Positions 9,586-45,208 are shown, counted from the first letter of the stretch. The stretch: 64,000 nucleotides of DNA from an uncultured Actinomycetes bacterium (GCA_963797635.1 CAWCPZ010000010.1:204909-268908), one strand, 5' to 3'. The notes: generated by a model from the letters alone, not told the origin. Translations and numbers: made by a program.

Positions 9586-10017
9586 ATGAGCGTTCCGGCC
9601 AAGATCAACATCGTCACCCTGGGGGTCGCCGACATCGAACGGGCGGCCGCGTTCTACTCCGCGCTGGGGTGGGAACGATGCGCTTCCGGTGGTGACGAGA
9701 TCACCTGGTTCCGCACCAACGGCGCCTACCTGGGGTTGTTCGGCTACGCCTCGCTGGCGGCCGACGCCGACCTGCCTCCGGAGCCTCGCGCGCCGTTCGG
9801 CGGCATCACGCTGGCGATCAACGTCGAGGCCGAGCAGGCCGTCACCGACGCGCTCGATGCCGCGGTCGCCGCGGGCGGCACGCTGCTGAAGGCCGCCGAA
9901 CGCATGGACTGGGGCGGGTTCTCCGGCTACTTCGCCGATCCCGACGGGCATCCGTGGGAGGTCGCCTTCAACCCGTTCTTCCCGATCGGGGCCGACGGGT
10001 CGATCACGATCGACTGA
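9586..10017 (+). CDS. VOC (glyoxalase/bleomycin-resistance/dioxygenase) family protein
   Basis: Start is the internal ATG (MSVPAKINIVTLGVADIERAAAFYSALGWE...). The beta-alpha-beta-beta-beta module pattern matches the VOC fold. Confidence 0.75.
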   Translation: MSVPAKINIVTLGVADIERAAAFYSALGWERCASGGDEITWFRTNGAYLGLFGYASLAADADLPPEPRAPFGGITLAINVEAEQAVTDALDAAVAAGGTLLKAAERMDWGGFSGYFADPDGHPWEVAFNPFFPIGADGSITID

Positions 10018-10020
10018 GCG

Positions 10021-10944
10021 TCAGTACCGGGCGCCTTCGGCGACGGGCAGCGCGTCCAGATCGGCCAGGTCCTCGGGTGAGAGCACGAGGTCGCCGGCGG
10101 CCAGGTTCTCCTCCAGGTAGCGCCGACGCTTCGTGCCGGGGATCGGCAGCACGTGCTCGCCCTGGGCCAACGTCCACGCGAGCGCGACCTGCGCGGGCGT
10201 GGCGCCCACGCGTTCGGCCACCTCGCGAACCCGCGCCACGATGGCCTGGTTCGCGTCGACCGCCTCGGCGGTGAAGCGCGGATTGTTCGACCGGAAGTCG
10301 GACTCGTCGAAGCTCGCCGCCGAGATCGCCCCCGTGAGGAACCCGCGCCCCAGCGGGGAGAACGGCACGAACCGGGCGCCGTGCTCGGCGCACCAGGGCA
10401 CGATGTCCGCGAGCGGATCGCGCGTCCACAGGCTCATCTCCGATTGGATCGCCGCGACCGGATGGATCGCGTGCGCCCGTTCGGCCTCCGCGACCGTGAC
10501 CTCCGAGAGCCCGAGGGCTCGCACCTTGCCGGCGCCGACGAGTTCGGCCATCGCGCCCCAGGTCTCTTCGACGGGGACGTTCGGATCGATGCGGTGGAGG
10601 TAGTAGAGGTCGACCACATCGGTGCGCAGCCGTCGGAGGGAAGCGTCGATCGCCGACCGCACGTGTTGAGGGCTCGCGTCGCGGTCGAGCGGGTAGCCGC
10701 CGTTCGGTCCCACGAGCAGGCCCACCTTGGTGGCCACCTCCACGCGGTCGCGGCGGTCGTGGATGGCCGCGCCGACGAGCTCCTCGTTGGAGAACGGGCC
10801 GTACACATCGGCGGTGTCGAGCATCGGGGCACCCAGGTCGATGGCGCGGTGGATCACGTCGACCGGGTCATCGTCGGCCTCGGCATCGACGTAGCCGAAG
10901 CTCATCGGCATGCACCCCAGCCCGATCCTGGCGGTTCCTCCCAT
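10021..10944 (-). CDS. aldo/keto reductase
   Basis: 307 aa with AKR signatures (DTADVYG, ...LYYLHRID..., GLSEV..., IPGTKRRRYLEEN). Confidence 0.9.
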   Translation of the reverse strand: MGGTARIGLGCMPMSFGYVDAEADDDPVDVIHRAIDLGAPMLDTADVYGPFSNEELVGAAIHDRRDRVEVATKVGLLVGPNGGYPLDRDASPQHVRSAIDASLRRLRTDVVDLYYLHRIDPNVPVEETWGAMAELVGAGKVRALGLSEVTVAEAERAHAIHPVAAIQSEMSLWTRDPLADIVPWCAEHGARFVPFSPLGRGFLTGAISAASFDESDFRSNNPRFTAEAVDANQAIVARVREVAERVGATPAQVALAWTLAQGEHVLPIPGTKRRRYLEENLAAGDLVLSPEDLADLDALPVAEGARY

Positions 10945-11093
10945 GCATGCACCCTATCGCCGCCTCCACGAAGCGCCGCTGTAGTCCGGTCGGGGGGACC
11001 CCGTCCGGCCCAACGCGACTCGGCCCATCGGCCTTGGGGTTTGGGCTGTGCGCCCGATGTGTGCCGGTGTCCTCCGATGGGAAGGTCGACACG

Positions 11094-12179
11094 ATGGTCT
11101 TGGGTGAGGGGGAGCCGGTCGTTGACGTCGTTCGCGGCGTCGTGTCGCTGCCCGACCTGCCCGCTCCCGCCCTCACCGATCATCTCCCCGAAGGCCCCTC
11201 ATGGCGCTATGAACCGGACTGGGACGGACTGCGCGTCGTGGTGCACCGGCGTGCGGGGCACACCGTGTTGGTGTCCGACCGGGGGAAGGCGATGGACCGC
11301 TACTTCCCCGAGGTGGTGCGGCACGCGTCACGCCTTCCCCTCGACTGCACGGTGCGCGGTTCGATCGTGGTGGTTCGGCGGTCCGGGTTCTCCTTCGATC
11401 GTCTGCGGTTGCGGATCCACCCCTCGGAGGCGCGGGTCGCCGAACTCACCGAGCGCTGGCCCGCCACGCTCGTGCTGACCGACCTGCTGTCGCGCGACAC
11501 CTGGGATCTGCGGCCGTGCGACCTCTCGGCGCGGCGCTTGCTGCTGGTCTCGATCGCGGAGGATTCGGACATCCCCGCGGCCTCGGCCGACCTCGGCCAG
11601 CTGGCAGCCGGCACGCCGGTCGTCGTGACGCCGCACACGCCGTTCGTCAGTTTCGCGATCCGGTGGCTCGAGGACCGGGACGAATCCGGGCGCGACGGCG
11701 TGATCGCGCGAGCGATGGACGGGGTCACGATGGTGCGGGTGCCCAGGCTCCGAACGGCGACCTGCGTGGTGACCGGGATCCGGCGCGAAGGCTCCGGCCC
11801 GCCGCACGCCTTGCGCCTGGGGCTCTACGACGGCGATGCCCTGGTCGACGTGGGGCGGACCACGTCGCTCCGTGGGTCGAGGGAGCGGCGCGGAGCGGCG
11901 CTCGCGCTCGCAGGTCTCGAGCGTGACACCCGGGCCGTGAACGGATGGATCGACGTCCGCCCCGAGATGGCCTGCGAGGTGACGTTCGCACGGCTGCGCG
12001 GGCGACGGTTCCGATCGGCGGCGCGGTTCATGCGGTGGCTGCCGGCGATGGATCCGCAACGATGCACGCTGCAGCAGTTCGACGCGATGGCACCGCCTCC
12101 GCCGGCAGCCCGCCGACGATCACGACGTGATCCGCCTCGACGTCTGAGGCTCGCCGTCAGCGCACCACCTTCGTGTTGA
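11094..12179 (+). CDS. ATP-dependent DNA ligase (LigC-like) homolog lacking the catalytic lysines (predicted inactive)
   Basis: Start at the ATG 11094 (MVLGEGEP...). It aligns along its full length to the LigC-type adenylation and OB domains. Motif I reads YEPDWDGLR (D where the adenylated K should be), motif III reads DCTVRGSIVVV (not DGExV), motif IV reads DGVIAR (K to R), and motif V reads MVRVPR (KxK to RxP). The C-terminal ...FRSAARFMRWLPAMDPQRCT is retained. Confidence 0.7.
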   Translation: MVLGEGEPVVDVVRGVVSLPDLPAPALTDHLPEGPSWRYEPDWDGLRVVVHRRAGHTVLVSDRGKAMDRYFPEVVRHASRLPLDCTVRGSIVVVRRSGFSFDRLRLRIHPSEARVAELTERWPATLVLTDLLSRDTWDLRPCDLSARRLLLVSIAEDSDIPAASADLGQLAAGTPVVVTPHTPFVSFAIRWLEDRDESGRDGVIARAMDGVTMVRVPRLRTATCVVTGIRREGSGPPHALRLGLYDGDALVDVGRTTSLRGSRERRGAALALAGLERDTRAVNGWIDVRPEMACEVTFARLRGRRFRSAARFMRWLPAMDPQRCTLQQFDAMAPPPPAARRRSRRDPPRRLRLAVSAPPSC

Positions 12180-12835
12180 ACATCGCGGTGTCCAACGCGC
12201 CCAACTCGCGGAGCCAGATCAGGAGATGAGCCTCCATGGCGCGAGCCGCGGTGATGTCGCCCAGATCGAGGATGTCCCGCCACCCGAAGGACTCCAGGAT
12301 CGCGGTGACCTCGGCCTTGGCGTCGGCGTCGTTGCCGCACAGCGGGATCGTGTGGTCGCCGCCGGCGAGGGCGCCCGGGTCGGTCATCAGCGCCGCCGTC
12401 ATCGTGTTCCACACCTTCACGAATCGAGCCTGCGGGAAGGGCGGCCTGCAACCGTTCGCCGAGCGAATCGGTGTTGGCGACGAACAAGCTGGGCGGCCAA
12501 CCCGACGCGTGGTCGATCGGGTTGGACGCGTCGAGCACGATCGTCCCGGTGAGGTGCTCGCCCCCGGCGCTCAGCGCGGCCTCGGAGCCTTCACCGTCGG
12601 TGGCGTTCACGACGATCTCGCCGTGGGCCATCGCGTCGGCCTGGGTCGTGAGCCCGATCTCCGGGTGCTCCGCCTTCCACTGCGCGAACGGTGGGTTCCC
12701 CATGGCGTCGCCCTCGGTGCGCGCCATCAACGCCTCGACGTCGCGCGTCCCGATCACGACGTCATGGCCTTTCTGGGTGAAGCCCTGCGCCAAGGTCCGT
12801 CCGACGGTTCCCGTGCCCACGATGCCGACCTGCAT
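12157..12835 (-). CDS. NADPH-dependent F420 reductase-like NAD(P)-binding oxidoreductase; frameshifted near 12425
   Basis: The N-terminal part (MQVGIVGTGTVGRTLAQGFTQKGHDVVIGTRD...) and the C-terminal part (MKVWNTMTAALMTDPGALAGGDHTIPLCGNDADAKAEV...) are in adjacent frames. Deleting one C in CTTCCCGCA restores ...QAALPQARFVKVWNTM. Confidence 0.65.
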
Positions 12836-32835: not shown

Positions 32836-33612
32836 TCAGGCGGCGAAGAACGCCTCCAGCGCAGGCGTGATGACCGAGGGATCGACGTCGTGCGTCTGCC
32901 CCTCCAGCAGACCGTGCTGTCCGTTCGGGAGCAGGTCGGCCATCGCTCGGGCCGTCTGATCCATCCACGGGAAGCTCGCGCTCCCCGCCAGGACCAGCGT
33001 GGGGGTCGAGACCGACGCGACGAGCTCGGTGGGCATGGTGTAGTCGCCCATCACGGTGGCGTCGTAGGCCAACGTGTGCGCCAGGGCCTCCGTGGGACCC
33101 CAGAACGGCGCGTTCTTCGCCTGGGCGACGAACTCGTCGGGCATGCCCACCACCTTCGACATGAAGAACTCGACCGCGTCGCCACGACGATCCTCGGCCA
33201 CGAGTCGCCGGTAGGTCTCCGCCGTGTCGGCCGGAGGGCGCGGGAGCCCCTCCGGGATGTAGGGCGGCTCCCACAGGGCGAGCTTCGTGATGCTGTCGAG
33301 CTTCGCCGCCGCCTTCAGCGCCAGCACCGCCCCCGAGGACGTGCCGTACAGGAACGCCGAGCCCCCGGCCGCGTCGACGACCGCGGCGATGTCTTCGATC
33401 TCACGGTCCACGGCGTAGGGCTGGGTGTCACCGCTGTCGCCGCGACCACGGCGGTCGTAGTTGAAGGCCGTGTGGTCGGCCGCCAGCAGCTCGGCAACCG
33501 GTGCGTTCGACATGCGGTCCACCGACCCGCCGCACACCAGGACCACGGGAGGGCCTTCGCCGAGCCGGTCGTAGCCGATCGCCGTGCCGTCGTTCGATGT
33601 CACGTGTTCCAT
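32836..33612 (-). CDS. alpha/beta hydrolase (paralog of 24064..24853)
   Basis: Start at ATG 33612 (MEHVTSNDGTAIGYDRLGEGPPVVLVCGG...YDRRGRGDSGDTQPYAVDREIEDIAAVVDAAGGSAFLYGTSSGAVLALKAA). Nucleophile elbow GTSSG. Confidence 0.75.
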   Translation of the reverse strand: MEHVTSNDGTAIGYDRLGEGPPVVLVCGGSVDRMSNAPVAELLAADHTAFNYDRRGRGDSGDTQPYAVDREIEDIAAVVDAAGGSAFLYGTSSGAVLALKAAAKLDSITKLALWEPPYIPEGLPRPPADTAETYRRLVAEDRRGDAVEFFMSKVVGMPDEFVAQAKNAPFWGPTEALAHTLAYDATVMGDYTMPTELVASVSTPTLVLAGSASFPWMDQTARAMADLLPNGQHGLLEGQTHDVDPSVITPALEAFFAA

Positions 33613-34139
33613 CAGCTGTCCCCGTCCTGGTCGTGACGCGCCTTCAGGGTCTCGCCGCCGACGTGCTCGGCGAGCCGGTCGAAGAAGATCAGCGAGCCGC
33701 GCATCGCGCGGGAGTACTCGTCCGCCGGCAGGTTGCCGCCGCGCTGGGTGAACGTCATCTCGGTGCGGCCGTCGCCGATGTCCTTGAACTCGGCGGTCAG
33801 GACCTCGACGTTGCTGGTGGTGCCACCGGGGTCCGCCAGCGTCATGACCACGCGCTCGGGTTCCACGACCTCCCGGAACTCCCCCGCGAAGGGGATCTCG
33901 ATCTTGTCGGGACCGTGCAGCATCACGGCGCTCCACGCGCCGCCGGGCCGTGCGTCCATCTCGATGCGGTCGAGCGGGATCGAGGAACCGTGCTCACCGA
34001 ACCAGGTGGCGAAGCGTTCGGGCTCGGTCCACGCCTTGAACACGAGCTCGCGCGGGGCGTCGAACACGCGCACGATCTCGATGCCGTTGCCGTCGCTGTG
34101 GGCGGAGACGACGCCTTCGGGTGGGGTCTGATCAGCCAT
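33612..34139 (-). CDS. SRPBCC family protein (AHSA1 domain)
   Basis: Start at ATG 34139 (MADQTPPEGVVSAHSDGNGIEIVRVFDAPRELVFKAWTEPERFATWFG...). Confidence 0.75.
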   Translation of the reverse strand: MADQTPPEGVVSAHSDGNGIEIVRVFDAPRELVFKAWTEPERFATWFGEHGSSIPLDRIEMDARPGGAWSAVMLHGPDKIEIPFAGEFREVVEPERVVMTLADPGGTTSNVEVLTAEFKDIGDGRTEMTFTQRGGNLPADEYSRAMRGSLIFFDRLAEHVGGETLKARHDQDGDS

Positions 34140-34470
34140 CGGTGGCTCCTTCCTGGATCGATCGGAGATGGTCCTCGAGGCGGTCGAACCGGGGCTCCCA
34201 GAACCGACGGTAGTGGTCCAGCCATGCGGAGACGTCCCCGAGCGGGGCGGCATCCAAACGGCACGGGCGCCATTGTGCGACCCGCCCCCGGGTGATCAGC
34301 GTGGCGCCCTCCAACACGGTGAGGTGTTTGGACACCGCCTGCAGGCTGATCGGGAACGGTTCGGCCAGCTGGCTGACGGTGGCCTCTCCTTCGGACAGGC
34401 GGGACAGGATCGCCCGCCGCGTGGGGTCGGCGAGCGCCCCGAACGTGGTGCTGAGTTGGTCGACCGCCAT
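34132..34470 (-). CDS. ArsR/SmtB family transcriptional regulator
   Basis: MAVDQLSTTFGALADPTRRAILSRLSEGEATVSQLAEPFPISLQAVSKHLTVLEGATLI..., overlapping the start of the downstream AHSA1 gene. Confidence 0.8.
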   Translation of the reverse strand: MAVDQLSTTFGALADPTRRAILSRLSEGEATVSQLAEPFPISLQAVSKHLTVLEGATLITRGRVAQWRPCRLDAAPLGDVSAWLDHYRRFWEPRFDRLEDHLRSIQEGATDG

Positions 34471-34534
34471 CGCGAGATGCCTTCTTCCGTTAATCAACCG
34501 TTAGGTTGAACATAGAGCAACGCAAGGAGTTCCG

Positions 34535-36187
34535 TCAACGTTGATCGTCGTGGGTGGCGCTGACCGAGAGCAACTCGAAGGCTTCGGTCGGCTCACGCTT
34601 GCCCTTCAGGTCGGCCAGCCCCATCGGCCGCACGTCGACGATCACGTCGGGCTCGGTGTTGACCTCGTCCAGGGTCCGGCCGGCGATCGTGATGTGGCCC
34701 GGGGTCGAGAGGGTCTGCAGACGGGCGGCGACGTTGGTCGTGTCGCCGATCACCGAGAACGACCGTTGCGACCCGGCGCCCACGTTGCCGATCACGGCCA
34801 CCCCCGTGTTCACGCCGACACGGAACCGCGGCCAGTCCTCGGACGCGCGCACCTCCGTGGAACGGTCGCGGATCGCGATCGCCGCCCGCACCGCTCTCGC
34901 CGCATGGTCGGGCTGGTCGCCGAGCGCGTTGAACACCGCGAGCACGGCGTCGCCGGCGAACCGTTCGATCAATCCGCCCTCCTCGTCGACGACGAACGGC
35001 ACCACGACACCCCAGTACGCGTTCAACATCTCGATCACCTCTGCCGCCGGCCGGTCCTCGGAGAACGTGGTGAACCCGGAGAGATCCGCGAACAACACGG
35101 TGACCTCCTGCTCCTGCCCGCCCAGCTGCGCGAGCTCGGGTTCGGCGTCGAGACGGTCGGCCAGGTGCGGGCTGACGTACTGGCGCAGCAGCCGGTCCAT
35201 CCGCGCGAGCTCGCGCGCCGAGTCCGTCATGACGGCCACCTGGTCGCCGGTGAACCCTTGCTGACGGAGTTCCTCGCCGGTGCTGCCGAGGGTCCCCGAG
35301 GCGTCGGCACGCACGAGCTCGGCGAGCGCGGCCGATTGCCGATGGTCGAGCCGCTCCAAGGTGCGTTCCAGGTAGATGCCGCCGAAGGTTCCCGACGCGG
35401 TGCGCGCATGGCGGTACTCGTGCCGGGCAGCGAGCACGATCGTGGCGAACGCGATCGCCATCAGCACGTGCCACTCCCACCACGATGCCTGCCACGCGCG
35501 CCCGAACGCCATGGCGATCAGGGCCTCGGCGAGGAACACGAACGCCACCGCGACGGCCAGCGGAAGGGGGCGGCGGCGTGTGCGATAGATCCGCAGGTAC
35601 CGCCACGCCGCGAACAGGTAGGCCGCCACGGCGAACGGCAGCAGGACCAGCAGCCACGGCGCGCGTTCGGACTCGATCACGCGATCGAGCGGTCCGAACC
35701 CGGCCACCGAGGCCGTCGCCCACACGATCAACACGACGACCAGGCCCACGCGCATCGGCGCCTGCAGCCGACGCAGCGTCGCCTCGGTGCGCTCGTCCAT
35801 CTCGATCGCGGAGAGCGCCGCGAACCCCGCGGCCAGGATGAGTCCGGCGGGGGTGGCCAGCACGAACCCGCCGTTCGGCCCGTCGAGCACCACGCCGGGT
35901 GTGGCGAGCGCGTGCAACGCCAGGAACCCCGCGCTCGTGAGCAGCACCATCGACACCAGGAAGAGCCGTTCGTCGCCGCTCCGCCGCGCGACCTCGCTCA
36001 CGATCAGGCCGAGGGCCACGTTGAGCAGGGCGACGCCGAACACGAGCCAGAAGTGCGATGGATGGTGCTCCCAATGCACGTCGAGCGACGGGAACCCCAG
36101 CATCAGGGCCAGTCCCGCGAGCGGGACGATCAGTGCGGCCGCGAGGAACCAGGGTGAGGGCCCCGCGGTGCGGGACGCGTGTTCCAT
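34535..36187 (-). CDS. membrane-anchored class III adenylate/guanylate cyclase
   Basis: N-terminal 6-TM domain followed by a cyclase homology domain (VTVLFADLSGFTTFSE...RFAGDAVLAVF...VGVNTGVAVIGNVGA...SVIGDTTNVAARL). Same strand as, and immediately downstream of, the HK at 36230. Confidence 0.8.
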   Translation of the reverse strand: MEHASRTAGPSPWFLAAALIVPLAGLALMLGFPSLDVHWEHHPSHFWLVFGVALLNVALGLIVSEVARRSGDERLFLVSMVLLTSAGFLALHALATPGVVLDGPNGGFVLATPAGLILAAGFAALSAIEMDERTEATLRRLQAPMRVGLVVVLIVWATASVAGFGPLDRVIESERAPWLLVLLPFAVAAYLFAAWRYLRIYRTRRRPLPLAVAVAFVFLAEALIAMAFGRAWQASWWEWHVLMAIAFATIVLAARHEYRHARTASGTFGGIYLERTLERLDHRQSAALAELVRADASGTLGSTGEELRQQGFTGDQVAVMTDSARELARMDRLLRQYVSPHLADRLDAEPELAQLGGQEQEVTVLFADLSGFTTFSEDRPAAEVIEMLNAYWGVVVPFVVDEEGGLIERFAGDAVLAVFNALGDQPDHAARAVRAAIAIRDRSTEVRASEDWPRFRVGVNTGVAVIGNVGAGSQRSFSVIGDTTNVAARLQTLSTPGHITIAGRTLDEVNTEPDVIVDVRPMGLADLKGKREPTEAFELLSVSATHDDQR

Positions 36188-36229
36188 CGAGCCATCATGC
36201 AGGGTCGTCGCGGTCGTCCGCATCGCCCA

Positions 36230-37318
36230 TCAGGCCGACGGGATGGTGAACGCGATCGTGGTGCCGCCGGCGGCCGAGGGCCGGGCCTCGATCGCCCCAC
36301 CGTGCGCCGCAACCAGGCGCTTGGCGATCGCGAGCCCGAGTCCCGTCCCGCCGGCATCGGCCGACGTCACGAACCGGTCGAACACGAACGGCAGCTGGTC
36401 GAGGTCGATCCCCGGGCCCGTGTCGTCGACCTCGAACGTGGCGCTCGACGGGGTCGTCGCGACGCGGATCGTGACGGTGCCGTCCGGCGGGGTGTGCCGG
36501 ATCGCGTTCGTCAGCAGGTTGGTCAACACCTCCGAGAGGCGGACGGGGTCGGCCTCGATCGTGCCGTCCGTTCCGGCATCGGCCGCGATCGTCAGCGTGA
36601 CGCCGGCGTCGTCAGCCATGGACCGGAACGCCGTGGCGACGTCACCGGCGAGAGCCCGAGGGTCGACGGTCTCACGGTGCAGCTCGAGCACGCCGGCCTC
36701 GGCCATGGAGAGCGTGCGCAGATCCTCCAGGAGGCGATCCATCACGACGGTCTCCTCCACCAGGGGACGCAGCCGTTCGGCATCGGCAGGGTAGAGGCCG
36801 TCGAGCATGCCCTCCACGGTGCCGCGGATCACCTGCAGCGGTGTCCGGAGCTCATGCGCGACGTCGGCCAGCAACTCGCGGCGCCGCGCTTCGTCGGTCT
36901 CGAGACGTTCGGTCATCTGGTTGAAGCTGGACGTCAGCCGCCCCAGCTGCCGCGAACCCGTGACCTCGACCCGGGTGGTGTAGTCGCCGCCGGCCACGCG
37001 GTCGGCGGCGTCCATCAACGTGCCGATCGCGCGCGTGTTCCGCCAGAGCCAGCGCGCGCTCGCGATCAACGCCGCGATGACGGCGAGGGCGAGCGGCACC
37101 GTCACGATGGGGTGCGGCGCGTTGCCGCCGAACGCGGACGCCACCACCGTCGCGAGCGCCGCCACCAGCAGGACCACCAGGACCAGCACGGCGATCGCTC
37201 CCCGGCGGAACCGTCGTCCTGCGTCGAACCCCGGGCGTCCTCGGCCCGCCCACGGCGGCGGTCCATCCCAGTCCGGACCGCGCCAGGGCGCCCCGCGGCG
37301 GTCGTCGTGCTCAGGCAT
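36230..37318 (-). CDS. sensor histidine kinase (TM-HAMP-HisKA-HATPase, OmpR-type partner)
   Basis: H-box (LADVAHELRTPLQVIRG) and ATP lid (LTNLLTNAIRHT...DDTGPGI...GTGLGLAIAKRLV). Confidence 0.85.
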   Translation of the reverse strand: MPEHDDRRGAPWRGPDWDGPPPWAGRGRPGFDAGRRFRRGAIAVLVLVVLLVAALATVVASAFGGNAPHPIVTVPLALAVIAALIASARWLWRNTRAIGTLMDAADRVAGGDYTTRVEVTGSRQLGRLTSSFNQMTERLETDEARRRELLADVAHELRTPLQVIRGTVEGMLDGLYPADAERLRPLVEETVVMDRLLEDLRTLSMAEAGVLELHRETVDPRALAGDVATAFRSMADDAGVTLTIAADAGTDGTIEADPVRLSEVLTNLLTNAIRHTPPDGTVTIRVATTPSSATFEVDDTGPGIDLDQLPFVFDRFVTSADAGGTGLGLAIAKRLVAAHGGAIEARPSAAGGTTIAFTIPSA

Positions 37319-37991
37319 CGGCGAACCGGTAGCCGACGCCGTGCACGGTGAGCACGTAGCGCGGGTGTCCCACCTCGGGCTCGATCTTGCGACGCAGGTT
37401 CTTCACGTGCGCGTCGATCGCGCGCTCGTACGTGTCGACCGTGACGCCGTGCAGGGCATCCAACAGCTGGCCGCGCGTGAACACCCTGCCCGGTTCACGG
37501 ACGAACGTCGCCAGGAGCTGGAACTCCGTGGGGGTGAGGTCGACCGCGCGCCCGTCCACGCGAGCGCGCATCTTCGGCAGGTCGACCTCCACGCCGGCGG
37601 CACGCATCACTTCGGCTCCGGCCGTGGTGCCGTTCGTGCGCCGCAGGACCGCACGCACCCTGGCCACCAGCTCCTTGGGACTGAAGGGCTTGACGAGGTA
37701 GTCGTCGGCGCCGAGCTCGAGCCCGACGATGCGGTCGGATTCCTCACCGCGCGCGGTGAGCATCACGATCGGCGTGGCCGACGTGCGGCGGAGCTCACGC
37801 GCGACGTCGAGGCCGTCCATCCCCGGCAACCCGAGGTCCAGCACCACGAGGTCGGGACGATCGCCCCGGGCACTGGCGAGCGCCGCCGAGCCGTCGCCCA
37901 CCACGGTCACTTCGAACCCGGCGACCTCGAGGTAGTCGCGCAACGTCCGCGCGATCTGCATCTCGTCTTCGACCACCAGGATCCGCTGCAT
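37311..37991 (-). CDS. response regulator, OmpR/PhoB family
   Basis: REC (ILVVEDEMQIARTL...VVLDLGLPGMDG) plus winged-helix (LTPTEFQLLATFVREPGRVFTRGQLL...GYRF). Confidence 0.9.
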   Translation of the reverse strand: MQRILVVEDEMQIARTLRDYLEVAGFEVTVVGDGSAALASARGDRPDLVVLDLGLPGMDGLDVARELRRTSATPIVMLTARGEESDRIVGLELGADDYLVKPFSPKELVARVRAVLRRTNGTTAGAEVMRAAGVEVDLPKMRARVDGRAVDLTPTEFQLLATFVREPGRVFTRGQLLDALHGVTVDTYERAIDAHVKNLRRKIEPEVGHPRYVLTVHGVGYRFADA

Positions 37992-38056
37992 GGGGCGAGC
38001 CTCTCTCGCGAGACGGGCGGAGGCAACCGTGCCTCCGCCCGCGCCTCGCGACCTCG

Positions 38057-38467
38057 TCAGCCTGCAGGCGATGCCTCGGCCGGCGGTGTGTCGCCGTGCT
38101 CACGCTGATGCCACTCGCGAGCTCGTTCCTCGAACCGGCGCCGGCCCTCCTCGTTCCAGGGTCCCGGCCCGTAGCCTCCGGGCCCGCCTCGGCCCCAGCG
38201 ACCCGCTCCCCGCATGATCCCGCCGATCAGGAAGAACGCCCCGATCAGGAACAGCGGGAACAGGAAGAACCCCGGGAAGAACCCGCGATGCTCGTCGCCC
38301 ACCACGTGCACGACCTGGACCTCCTGGCCGTTGTCCTGGGCGACCTGCACCTGCTCGATGCCCTGGGCGATGCCGTTGCGCTCGCCCGCGTTGTACGCGC
38401 CGACCCCGATGCCGATCCCCGCGAGGATCACCACCACCACTGCCACGATCCCGATACCACGACGCAT
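38057..38467 (-). CDS. small hypothetical membrane protein (2 TM, Gly-rich C-terminal tail), first gene of the RR-HK-cyclase operon
   Basis: 136 aa. TM1 at IGIVAVVVVILAGIGIGV, TM2 at FFPGFFLFPLFLIGAFFLIGGI, then GAGRWGRGGPGGYGPGPW. Lies 65 bp upstream of the response regulator on the same strand. Confidence 0.45.
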   Translation of the reverse strand: MRRGIGIVAVVVVILAGIGIGVGAYNAGERNGIAQGIEQVQVAQDNGQEVQVVHVVGDEHRGFFPGFFLFPLFLIGAFFLIGGIMRGAGRWGRGGPGGYGPGPWNEEGRRRFEERAREWHQREHGDTPPAEASPAG

Positions 38468-38584
38468 GTCGTACCTCCTCGTCTCGCGTCTGCCTCCACG
38501 TTGGCGCCCAGATGTGAACCGTTCGTGAAGGACGTAGGGAGGTTCATCGGGTGCCTCCCTGGCCCTCGAGGCAGCACCAGGCGT

Positions 38585-39031
38585 ATGGTCGAGGTCCAGG
38601 TCATGCCCGCATCGGAACCACGCCGTATGGAACGGGAGGCGATGGCGATGGTCGGTGAGATGACCGCGGTACTGCAGGGCATGTTCGGTGCTCTCGACAA
38701 ATCCGATCCCGAGATGGCGCTTGCCTCGATCGGTGCCGATGCGCAGGGCATCGACGAGATCTCACGTCGATGGATGCGAGGGCCCGGTGAGGTCACCCGG
38801 TACGTCCGTGAACTCTTCGGCATCGCCGAGGACGTCCACTCCGAGATGCACGACGTGCACGAAGTCGACTGGGGCGAGACCGGCGTCGTCACCTTCTGGC
38901 TGGAACAGGACTACACGCTGGACGGCGACCGAGGACACGTGTCCGCGCCCACCACCGCGGTGCTGCGACGCGAGGGCGGGGCCTGGAAGCTGGCGTTGTT
39001 CCACTCCCTGCCCCTGCCGCCGGAGCCGTAG
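38585..39031 (+). CDS. nuclear transport factor 2 (NTF2-like/SnoaL/DUF4440) family protein
   Basis: Start at ATG 38585. The 5' part of the track ORF is antisense to the small membrane protein. Contains ...GADAQGIDEISRRWMRGPGEV...TFWLEQDYTLDGDRGHVSAPTTAVLRREGGAWKLALFHS, consistent with an alpha+beta cone. Confidence 0.55.
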   Translation: MVEVQVMPASEPRRMEREAMAMVGEMTAVLQGMFGALDKSDPEMALASIGADAQGIDEISRRWMRGPGEVTRYVRELFGIAEDVHSEMHDVHEVDWGETGVVTFWLEQDYTLDGDRGHVSAPTTAVLRREGGAWKLALFHSLPLPPEP

Positions 39032-39042
39032 ACACCGGCCGA

Positions 39043-39549
39043 TCAGGGAAGCGGGTCGAGATCCTCGGCCGGGTCGATCTGCCAGTGGTTGCAGTGCAGG
39101 GTCGTTCCGCGGAACTCGAACGCCTCCTGCCCGATCAGCGTGAAGCCGAGCGACCGGCAGATGCCGTTGGAGGGCGCGTTGGTGATGGCGGGGAAGGCGT
39201 GGATGGTGCCCCAGCGACCGTCCGCACGGGCGCGTTCCAGCAGCGCCGCCACCGAGCGCTTGCCAACGCCCTGGCCTTGGAACTCGGGCAGCACGCCCCA
39301 GCCGATCTCGCTGAACGGCGCGTCGTCGTCGTGACTCCAGATGCACACCGATCCCATGGCCTCGCCGTCGTCGGATTCGACCACGACGATCCACGAGGTG
39401 TCGGTGTTCACCGCGGCGACATCCTCCGCGAGCTTGCCCGGGATCTCCTCCCGTGGTTGCGGACCGCCGAGCTCGGTGTTCATGACCGGGTCGCAGCGCA
39501 GGCGCTCCCACAGCGCGAGGTCATCGGGTCCGACGTCCCGGAGCTTCAT
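39043..39549 (-). CDS. GNAT family N-acetyltransferase
   Basis: Acetyl-CoA site LPEFQGQGVGKRSVAALLERA. 168 aa. Confidence 0.75.
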   Translation of the reverse strand: MKLRDVGPDDLALWERLRCDPVMNTELGGPQPREEIPGKLAEDVAAVNTDTSWIVVVESDDGEAMGSVCIWSHDDDAPFSEIGWGVLPEFQGQGVGKRSVAALLERARADGRWGTIHAFPAITNAPSNGICRSLGFTLIGQEAFEFRGTTLHCNHWQIDPAEDLDPLP

Positions 39550-45070: not shown

Positions 45071-45208
45071 GATCGGGAGAACACCTCTCGTATCGGGGTG
45101 GAGGCACCACCCGCGACCCGTTCACCGAGTCGTCACACAACACCCCCTCCACAGAACTGCAGCAACGCGCTAGGTTGAAGATCTCGAGGGCACGGAAGGG
45201 GAACCCGC

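Follow-up and report, generated by a model that had tools for sequence, protein, structure and literature searches.

The envelope-stress locus sigE-cseA-cseB-cseC of Streptomyces coelicolor combines an OmpR-type regulator, CseB, with a membrane kinase and an accessory gene upstream of both, and its transcription terminates after the first gene. Receiver-domain cyclase fusions, such as cyanobacterial CyaC, are an established link between the His-Asp phosphorelay and the synthesis of cyclic nucleoside monophosphates (cNMPs). The SaePQRS system of Staphylococcus aureus has an autoinduced P1 promoter and an intramembrane-sensing kinase and is subject to negative feedback via auxiliary proteins (PMC5083920), and the liaIH-liaGFSR locus of Bacillus subtilis has a weak terminator with read-through (PMC3567932). 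Here, we compare these systems with a locus at positions 34535 to 38467 of a stretch of 64,000 nucleotides (nt) from an uncultured Actinomycetes bacterium (GCA_963797635.1 CAWCPZ010000010.1:204909-268908), the whole of which we call the window. Four genes at this locus encode a small membrane protein, an OmpR-type response regulator, a sensor histidine kinase, and a membrane-anchored class III nucleotidyl cyclase, and an original prediction took them for one operon that couples the phosphorelay directly to cNMP synthesis. Our analysis indicates that the region probably consists of separate units lying head to tail, a conserved trio of small protein, regulator, and kinase and an independent cyclase.

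The physical layout given by that prediction, four minus-strand genes with gaps of at most 65 bp, is borne out by open reading frame (ORF) listing, Pfam domains, and reading of the sequence, and the Pfam domains also agree with the gene identities. The small membrane protein gene (38057-38467, minus strand; 136 amino acids [aa], no Pfam domain) is separated by 65 nt from the regulator gene (37311-37991, minus strand; 226 aa, Response_reg and Trans_reg_C domains), whose stop is overlapped over 8 nt by the kinase start in the sequence ATGCCTGA. The kinase gene (36230-37318, minus strand; 362 aa, HAMP, HisKA, and HATPase_c domains) is followed by the cyclase gene, which as an ORF covers 34535-36223 (minus strand; 562 aa, Guanylate_cyc domain at residues 371 to 544), after 6 nt if the cyclase starts at ATG 36223 or after 42 nt if it starts at ATG 36187. 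The GC content of the window is ~70%. In high-GC actinobacteria, same-strand tight spacing alone over-calls operons, since a leaderless gene may follow an unrelated one at a distance of a few dozen bases.

Synteny of the three genes and position of the cyclase

The locus was placed in a comparison set of ~170 related loci. Small protein, regulator, and kinase are adjacent and co-oriented in the contexts of three homologues (L001 to L005), and among 36 species-representative genome loci (L006 to L041), with synteny measured by tblastn, the trio is adjacent in all whose contig reaches far enough. Even the distant members of the small-protein family, P0400 and P0246 (L126 and L127), come with the trio, without the cyclase. 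This strict synteny, distant members included, supports the earlier idea that the small protein belongs with the kinase; its role as a partner is assigned by analogy.

The cyclase does not follow the same pattern. Outside the window it lies behind the kinase in just 2 of ~30 genome loci (L006 and L009). The small proteins of these two share 99% identity with that of the window, and an ArsR-AHSA1 pair again follows the cyclase. Unrelated sequence is found past the kinase stop in the ~28 other distinct loci. Genes after the kinase there encode DUF1801 proteins, GNAT acetyltransferases, AhpC/TSA, PNPOx, or ArsR, or else a glyoxalase, AHSA1 protein, or hydrolase in convergent orientation. Some of these passengers begin only 4 to 10 nt past the kinase stop (GNAT genes in L018, L019, L023, L032, and L038 and AhpC/TSA genes in L014 and L017). 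Passenger genes have thus repeatedly come to occupy the place after the kinase.

The view from the cyclase side is the same. The protein has thousands of relatives, and four orthologues with 73 to 87% identity on long contigs (L042 to L045) have four different neighborhoods, none with this two-component system; the linkage of cyclase, ArsR, and AHSA1 is kept in L045. A metagenome scan gave 80 more cyclase loci with 48 to 98% identity, and a regulator or kinase homologue lies upstream of the cyclase in none of the 51 that have at least 1 kb of upstream DNA. The four-gene synteny expected from the original prediction thus holds for the first three genes and fails for the fourth. We propose that a rearrangement, recent and specific to this lineage, probably brought the cyclase to its place after the kinase. 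Mobile ArsR/AHSA1 paralogues abound in the region and recur around the trio in many loci. In L002 (3012-5051), a cyclase orthologue is found 2 kb away from the trio, on its upstream side and beside an opposite-strand HATPase_c fragment of 94 aa that is 33% identical to the window kinase, an arrangement that hints at repeated rearrangement in the region.

Small membrane protein, regulator, and kinase

The small-protein gene is genuine and well conserved: close homologues with 66 to 96% identity number 314, a profile search gave 211 clusters at 50% identity, and 39 columns of the alignment are invariant. All homologues come from metagenomes or metagenome-assembled genomes labelled Actinomycetota; none of the distant relatives has a name other than "hypothetical protein," and no Pfam or NCBIfam family matches. 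The protein starts with an N-terminal transmembrane (TM) helix, continues through an acidic outer loop of ~35 aa (VQVVHV) into a Phe/Pro-rich second TM helix, and ends in a Gly/Pro/Trp-rich linker and a charged helix, GPWNEEGRRRFEERAREWH, that is conserved in the alignment. A fold search with an AlphaFold2 model of the protein was dropped, the model being too poor (predicted local distance difference test score [pLDDT], 59.5).

The regulator is a member of the OmpR/PhoB family, with a receiver domain that carries the phospho-acceptor Asp and a winged-helix Trans_reg_C domain. The Pfam matches to Response_reg (2e-31) and Trans_reg_C (2.5e-24) are both above cutoffs, and the translation contains D52, T79, and K101. 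Its closest solved structures are MtrA, BaeR, and RegX3, and it is 84 to 92% identical between loci. It stays under every NCBIfam equivalog cutoff (MtrA, PhoB, BaeR, CseB, and others), scoring at best 225 to 229 bits against cutoffs of 273 to 380. With 190 bits against a cutoff of 350 for the CseB model, it is therefore not a CseB orthologue.

The kinase is a class I (HisKA) sensor histidine kinase (Pfam HisKA, 4.3e-14; HATPase_c, 7.9e-29) with the H-box HELRTPL, which contains H155. No NCBIfam equivalog is reached, the best model, BaeS_SmeS, remaining far under its cutoff. By hydrophobicity, its TM helices lie at residues ~41 to 63 and 71 to 92 and are joined by an outer loop of ~7 residues, GGNAPHP. 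Since intramembrane-sensing kinases are recognized by two TM helices with an outer linker shorter than ~25 residues and thus unable to bind a ligand, the predicted input region fits this architecture, and a kinase that lacks an extracytoplasmic domain must sense within the membrane or via a partner. Residues 1 to 38 (37205-37318, minus strand) form a cytoplasmic N-terminal extension of ~40 residues rich in Arg, Gly, Pro, and Trp. It resembles the Gly-rich tail of the small protein in composition and aligns poorly between loci, tblastn matches often beginning at residue 20 to 60.

Putative promoter of the small-protein gene

Although the upstream genes differ, every aligned locus conserves a stretch of ~75 nt ahead of the small gene, with the consensus ACCTCC-N8-cTTCAyGAnCnnTTCACATC-N9-CAnCGT-N7-GACGCGAGAC-rAGGAGG-N4-7-ATG. 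It contains a direct repeat with an 11-bp period, TTCACGAACGG-TTCACA (TTCAC-N6-TTCACA; 38513-38529, minus strand), which we propose as the box for the OmpR-type regulator. The family form of the repeat is TTCAY-N6-TTCACA; each trio locus has one, ~46 to 62 nt before the small-gene ATG, and the repeat at 38513-38529 is the sole exact match in the window. Nine nucleotides after the repeat stands a putative -10-like hexamer, CAACGT (38498-38503, minus strand; conserved as CAnCGT, with A2 and T6 and the column pattern A.CGT), so placed that the repeat falls at about -38 to -22 and overlaps the -35 region. A repeat over the -35 region is the layout of PhoB/OmpR-activated promoters. In its geometry, the hexamer is compatible with actinobacterial -10 elements of the TANNNT type (PMC3898074), and a Shine-Dalgarno sequence, GGAGG (38474-38478, minus strand), read from the sequence and conserved across loci, precedes the start codon. 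Repeat box, CCTCC motif, and hexamer are all retained in the distant L126 and L127. From this layout, we infer that the small-gene promoter would be autoregulated via the predicted regulator box.

Eight nucleotides upstream of the repeat box, the ACCTCC motif (38538-38543, minus strand) is invariant in all aligned upstream regions and has the counterpart TCCTCC in L126 and L127. It is complementary to the Shine-Dalgarno sequence of the small gene, and CCTCC is common to the 3' arm of the hairpin described below. Neither a third regulator half-site nor the -35 element of an extracytoplasmic function sigma factor agrees with its spacing and sequence, and both were ruled out. A one-mismatch match to the regulator box, TTCACCGAGTCGTCACA, occurs at 45121-45137 (plus strand), within chance (0.35 expected).

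Is the small protein a partner of the kinase or the output of the system? By analogy with SaePQ-SaeS and LiaF-LiaS, we propose that its production is induced and that it would act back on the kinase as an auxiliary protein. It could instead be the main output, a stress-induced protein that protects the membrane in the way of LiaI/LiaH or PspA, with the two-component system sensing the membrane alone. Its gene stands first behind the only conserved regulator box, the hairpin that follows would favor its over-expression, and SaeS and LiaS are precedents for intramembrane-sensing kinases that sense via their own TM helices. However, strict one-to-one linkage with the kinase over wide divergence is more typical of interacting partners, and the protein is without similarity to any known effector family in Pfam or NCBIfam; effector and partner roles are also not mutually exclusive. 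A pure output role is therefore possible but doubtful, and the induced partner of the kinase is the role that we prefer.

Start and putative promoter of the cyclase gene

The cyclase most likely starts at ATG-GAA 36187, behind a 42-nt spacer, because in L006 and L009 the ATG matching 36223 does not share the reading frame of the cyclase. The gene then covers 34535-36187 (minus strand) and encodes 550 aa, the ORF extending to 36223. Reading of the sequence finds no Shine-Dalgarno sequence before this start. Six nucleotides upstream of the ATG stands the -10-like hexamer CATGAT (36194-36199, minus strand), proposed as a leaderless promoter; the transcription start predicted from it coincides with the start codon. 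Of 10 independent contexts of close orthologues, with flanks that are otherwise unalignable, 9 have a hexamer with A2 and T6 (CATCAT, CATAGT, CATGAT, TATCAT, and GAAGAT) at a distance of 6 to 7 nt ahead of the cyclase start, against a background frequency of 0.044 for two registers (binomial P, ~6e-12). Many distant orthologues carry TAGGGT, TAGATT, TAGACT, or TACGCT 6 to 8 nt before GTG or ATG, and one subgroup with 54 to 58% identity has a classical ribosome-binding site, GGAGGAGAC-GTG, instead. The TANNNT geometry of the -10 element is established for Mycobacterium tuberculosis (PMC3898074). Together, these motifs suggest that the cyclase has its own promoter, from which a leaderless transcript would be made.

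If all four genes formed one operon, as first predicted, activation of the two-component system would raise cyclase expression and thereby a cNMP signal in this lineage, or, in a weaker form, would do so through lineage-specific read-through. The genes share a strand, the gap measures 6 to 42 nt, and nothing resembling a terminator hairpin comes after the kinase. L006 and L009 preserve the junction, the cyclase of L002 is just 2 kb from the trio, and other lineages append unrelated genes 4 to 10 nt past the kinase stop, indicating that the position is commonly used for co-transcribed passengers. On the other hand, the adjacency is missing in ~28 other genome loci and in all 51 informative cyclase loci, and the direct-repeat box is found neither near cyclase orthologues elsewhere nor in cyclase-only loci. 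The cyclase AUG has no ribosome-binding site and comes with a conserved -10 hexamer, and as an internal AUG on polycistronic RNA it would therefore be poorly translated. Nor can any coupling be direct: the cyclase has no receiver domain and no histidine kinase or histidine phosphotransfer domain, Pfam giving Guanylate_cyc and a weak 7TMR-DISM_7TM match only, so that a link to the phosphorelay could only be transcriptional read-through. We regard a single four-gene operon as unlikely. Its assumption of uninterrupted genes is at odds with two conserved candidate elements, the hairpin between the first and second genes and the -10-like hexamer between the third and fourth, and its direct link between phosphorelay and cNMP synthesis is lost with the missing receiver domain and the missing synteny elsewhere. 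An independent cyclase behind a three-gene unit remains the preferred interpretation.

Hairpin and conserved block before the regulator gene

The 65-nt gap between small gene and regulator gene contains a GC-rich hairpin (38006-38051, core 38014-38041, minus strand) that the original prediction did not mention. It has a perfect stem of 12 to 13 bp, extendable to ~20 bp, and a folding energy of -48 kcal/mol (z, -3.2). All 35 distinct loci have this hairpin. The gap measures 58 to 75 nt in close loci and 126 nt in L126, and it always includes the hairpin, whose core is GGGCGGAGGC-loop-GCCTCCGCCC. In the alignment of the 35 distinct sequences, 83% of cells are paired and the outer pairs show 3 to 11 double substitutions each. 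The covariation is 0.201, above all 500 shuffles (mean, 0.124) and above the slid controls (at most 0.099), and the core itself has compensatory changes in L020 (GGCGGC/GCCGCC) and in L126.

The hairpin is a possible U-less actinobacterial terminator or RNA-stability element. We read it as a partial terminator or a stabilizer of the transcript 3' end, which would raise the ratio of small protein to two-component proteins; a precedent for such partial termination is the weak terminator after liaH (PMC3567932). That the palindrome acts as DNA, an operator for a dimeric regulator at an internal regulator/kinase promoter, is quite improbable: its core GCGGAGG...CCTCCGC is kept even in distant members, a nearly invariant GAGGCT (A2, T6) stands 6 to 7 nt before the regulator ATG, and constitutive internal promoters have precedents in sae P3 and PliaG, but the outer stem varies and yet pairs, covariation exceeds both controls, and the cores of L020 and L126 change in a compensatory manner, as is expected of an RNA helix and not of a sequence-specific operator.

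Next to the hairpin, the block GAGAGGCTC (37997-38005, minus strand) has nearly invariant columns and lies 6 nt before the regulator ATG. It may be a ribosome-binding site and/or contain a -10-like GAGGCT for a constitutive leaderless transcript of regulator and kinase, comparable to sae P3 (PMC5083920). A mini-hairpin, GCGAG-AGG-CUCGC, before the regulator gene was rejected because it covaries no better than shuffles. The main hairpin is not a genome-wide repeat; it is unique within the window, and the extra matches in L014 and L017 fall in the coding sequence of another kinase. Rfam (4,227 covariance models) gave no match at E of 1 or below in 33500-39500. The promoter and terminator scan missed both the hairpin and the -10 elements of actinobacterial type, and its intragenic terminator-like calls were regarded as noise.

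Catalytic and membrane domains of the cyclase

The catalytic domain (34592-35113, minus strand; residues 371 to 544; Pfam Guanylate_cyc, 2.2e-20) has Cya2 (2w01), CyaB (3r5g), and CyaC (1wc0) as its closest solved relatives. The metal-binding residues D380 and D425 and the transition-state residues N497 and R501 are invariant in 21 sequences of the family and align with those of CyaB, CyaC, and Cya2. The protein is a class III nucleotidyl cyclase and is probably active as an enzyme. The specificity position of class III cyclases is occupied by Lys, or by Glu in guanylyl cyclases. Here, an Arg (R421, in ERFAGD) is invariant at the position of the substrate-specifying Lys, and position 490, the site of the paired Asp (Thr in class IIIb), is Ser, Ala, or Thr, so that the nucleotide specificity cannot be assigned from sequence and the adenylyl-specific signature is absent.

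The membrane domain (35426-36154, minus strand) was first counted as six TM helices; the AlphaFold2 model (pLDDT, 75; predicted template modeling score, 0.74) predicts eight. Twelve invariant residues, D48, W51, H53, P55, S56, H57, H104, W248, W249, E250, W251, and H252, fall where TM2, TM3, and TM8 are predicted to end on the outer side. The four invariant His residues H53, H57, H104, and H252 form a cluster with E52, E250, and the WWEWH motif on what is predicted to be the outer face of the domain, which suggests a site that would sense a metal, protons/pH, or a cofactor. A His-ligated cofactor in a cyclase anchor has a precedent in Sinorhizobium meliloti CyaC (PMC10463352).

L045, from a genome related to that of the window, also contains an operon (9948-12738) with a HisKA_3 kinase, a fusion of Response_reg and Guanylate_cyc, and a GerE-type regulator. 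Downstream of the cyclase in the window, a sigma-70-like promoter, TTGACG-18-TATGTT (34509-34538, minus strand; one found by the promoter scan against 0.1 expected), overlaps the cyclase stop. It would serve the ArsR-AHSA1 pair (identified by Pfam domains) and sets the 3' boundary of the unit. Behind this promoter and just before the pair comes the palindrome TCAACCTAACGGTTGA (34494-34509), probably an operator for ArsR.

Proposed mechanism

Combining these elements, we propose the following model. The promoter with the OmpR-type direct repeat would drive the gene for the small two-TM protein, and the hairpin right after this gene would end or stabilize most transcripts, so that the small protein would be made in excess. 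Read-through, possibly with the help of a weak promoter in the GAGAGGCTC block, would supply the translationally coupled regulator and kinase. The small protein would be the partner through which the kinase senses, induced by the system and feeding back on the kinase. The cyclase would be an independent sensor-enzyme with its own eight-helix input domain and its own -10 element for a leaderless mRNA, receiving at most some poorly translated read-through transcripts.

Several observations weigh against this model. The hexamer travels with the cyclase gene, meaning that the ten contexts are not fully independent, and in the window it starts with C and not T. The kinase-cyclase spacer is only 42 nt long and contains no terminator-like structure, which makes it likely that transcripts read through into the cyclase, possibly with biological consequences in this lineage. 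Kinase and cyclase are adjacent in three species-level genomes (window, L006, and L009), so that this junction is no one-off assembly artefact. The hairpin lacks a U-tract (its tail is GUCUCGCGAG) and was not called by the terminator scan, and the conservation of its core sequence is compatible with a protein-binding palindrome. The proposed role of the small protein is drawn by analogy, and its structure model has the poor score given above.

What would the model amount to if it were carried further? As a long shot, to which as a whole we give very little chance, the small protein would found a new family of membrane proteins that assist intramembrane-sensing kinases in uncultured Actinomycetota from soil; the hairpin, with its GGAGG...CCUCC arms resembling a Shine-Dalgarno sequence and its complement, would form together with the upstream ACCTCC an RNA-level switch on the ratio of partner to kinase; and read-through in the lineage of the window would drive the His-rich eight-TM cyclase with its unusual Arg, giving a young cascade from two-component system to cNMP.

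Comparison with known systems

The cyclase shares with Rv1625c/Cya of M. tuberculosis (PMC9433096) and CyaC of S. meliloti (PMC10463352) the combination of a polytopic membrane domain with a class III catalytic domain and the presence of all four catalytic metal and transition-state residues. It differs from both in its eight predicted helices instead of six, in the Arg that replaces the substrate-specifying Lys, and in a catalytic domain that is nearest to class IIIb (Cya2, CyaB, and CyaC of Spirulina). The conserved His residues within its membrane domain are reminiscent of S. meliloti CyaC, whose anchor binds heme, but heme is not evidenced here and the His cluster lies at one membrane face. 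Unlike the receiver-cyclase fusions, one of which is encoded in L045 (10610-11560), the window cyclase has no receiver, and the link proposed earlier would consist of gene adjacency alone. With an invariant Arg at the specificity position and an outward-facing His cluster, the family is a candidate for a new type of input among membrane cyclases.

The trio has its actinobacterial counterpart in sigE-cseABC, where an OmpR-type regulator is likewise combined with a membrane kinase and an upstream accessory gene and where the termination after the first gene would be a further parallel if the hairpin acts as proposed, but the present locus has no sigma factor gene, and CseA is a lipoprotein, in contrast to the two-TM protein found here. 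In its workings, the trio most resembles SaePQRS. Both have an OmpR-family regulator, a HAMP-containing kinase with two TM helices and a short outer linker (~9 residues in Sae), and auxiliary membrane protein genes upstream in the operon, and the autoinduced first promoter with direct-repeat sites and the unequal transcript levels along the operon would also be shared if our model of the trio is correct. The differences are that the small protein is unrelated to SaeP and SaeQ, that there is one auxiliary gene here and not two, that the organisms are Actinomycetota and not Bacillota, that a stem-loop stands here in place of the RNase Y site of sae, and that an internal constitutive promoter is putative here. 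With liaIH-liaGFSR, the trio shares an intramembrane-sensing kinase with an accessory membrane protein and an inducible promoter with small membrane protein genes in first place behind it; a weak terminator coming next, with read-through into the two-component genes and resulting autoregulation, would be a further parallel under the proposed model. LiaRS is of the NarL/HisKA_3 type, in contrast to OmpR/HisKA here, neither LiaF nor LiaI shows a relationship to the small protein, and the gene order differs.

As far as family libraries and paper searches show, the trio appears to be widespread and uncharacterised, and a literature search found no paper on the module. Its cis layout is unusually readable, with a regulator box, a -10 element, an attenuating hairpin, and coupled two-component genes following one another, and it offers a test case for how kinases without sensor domains use small membrane partners outside Bacillota. 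Because its proteins are unrelated to SaeP, SaeQ, LiaF, and LiaI and its regulator misses every equivalog cutoff, the trio belongs to neither the Sae nor the Lia family; it is a three-component module built like SaePQRS and LiaFSR.

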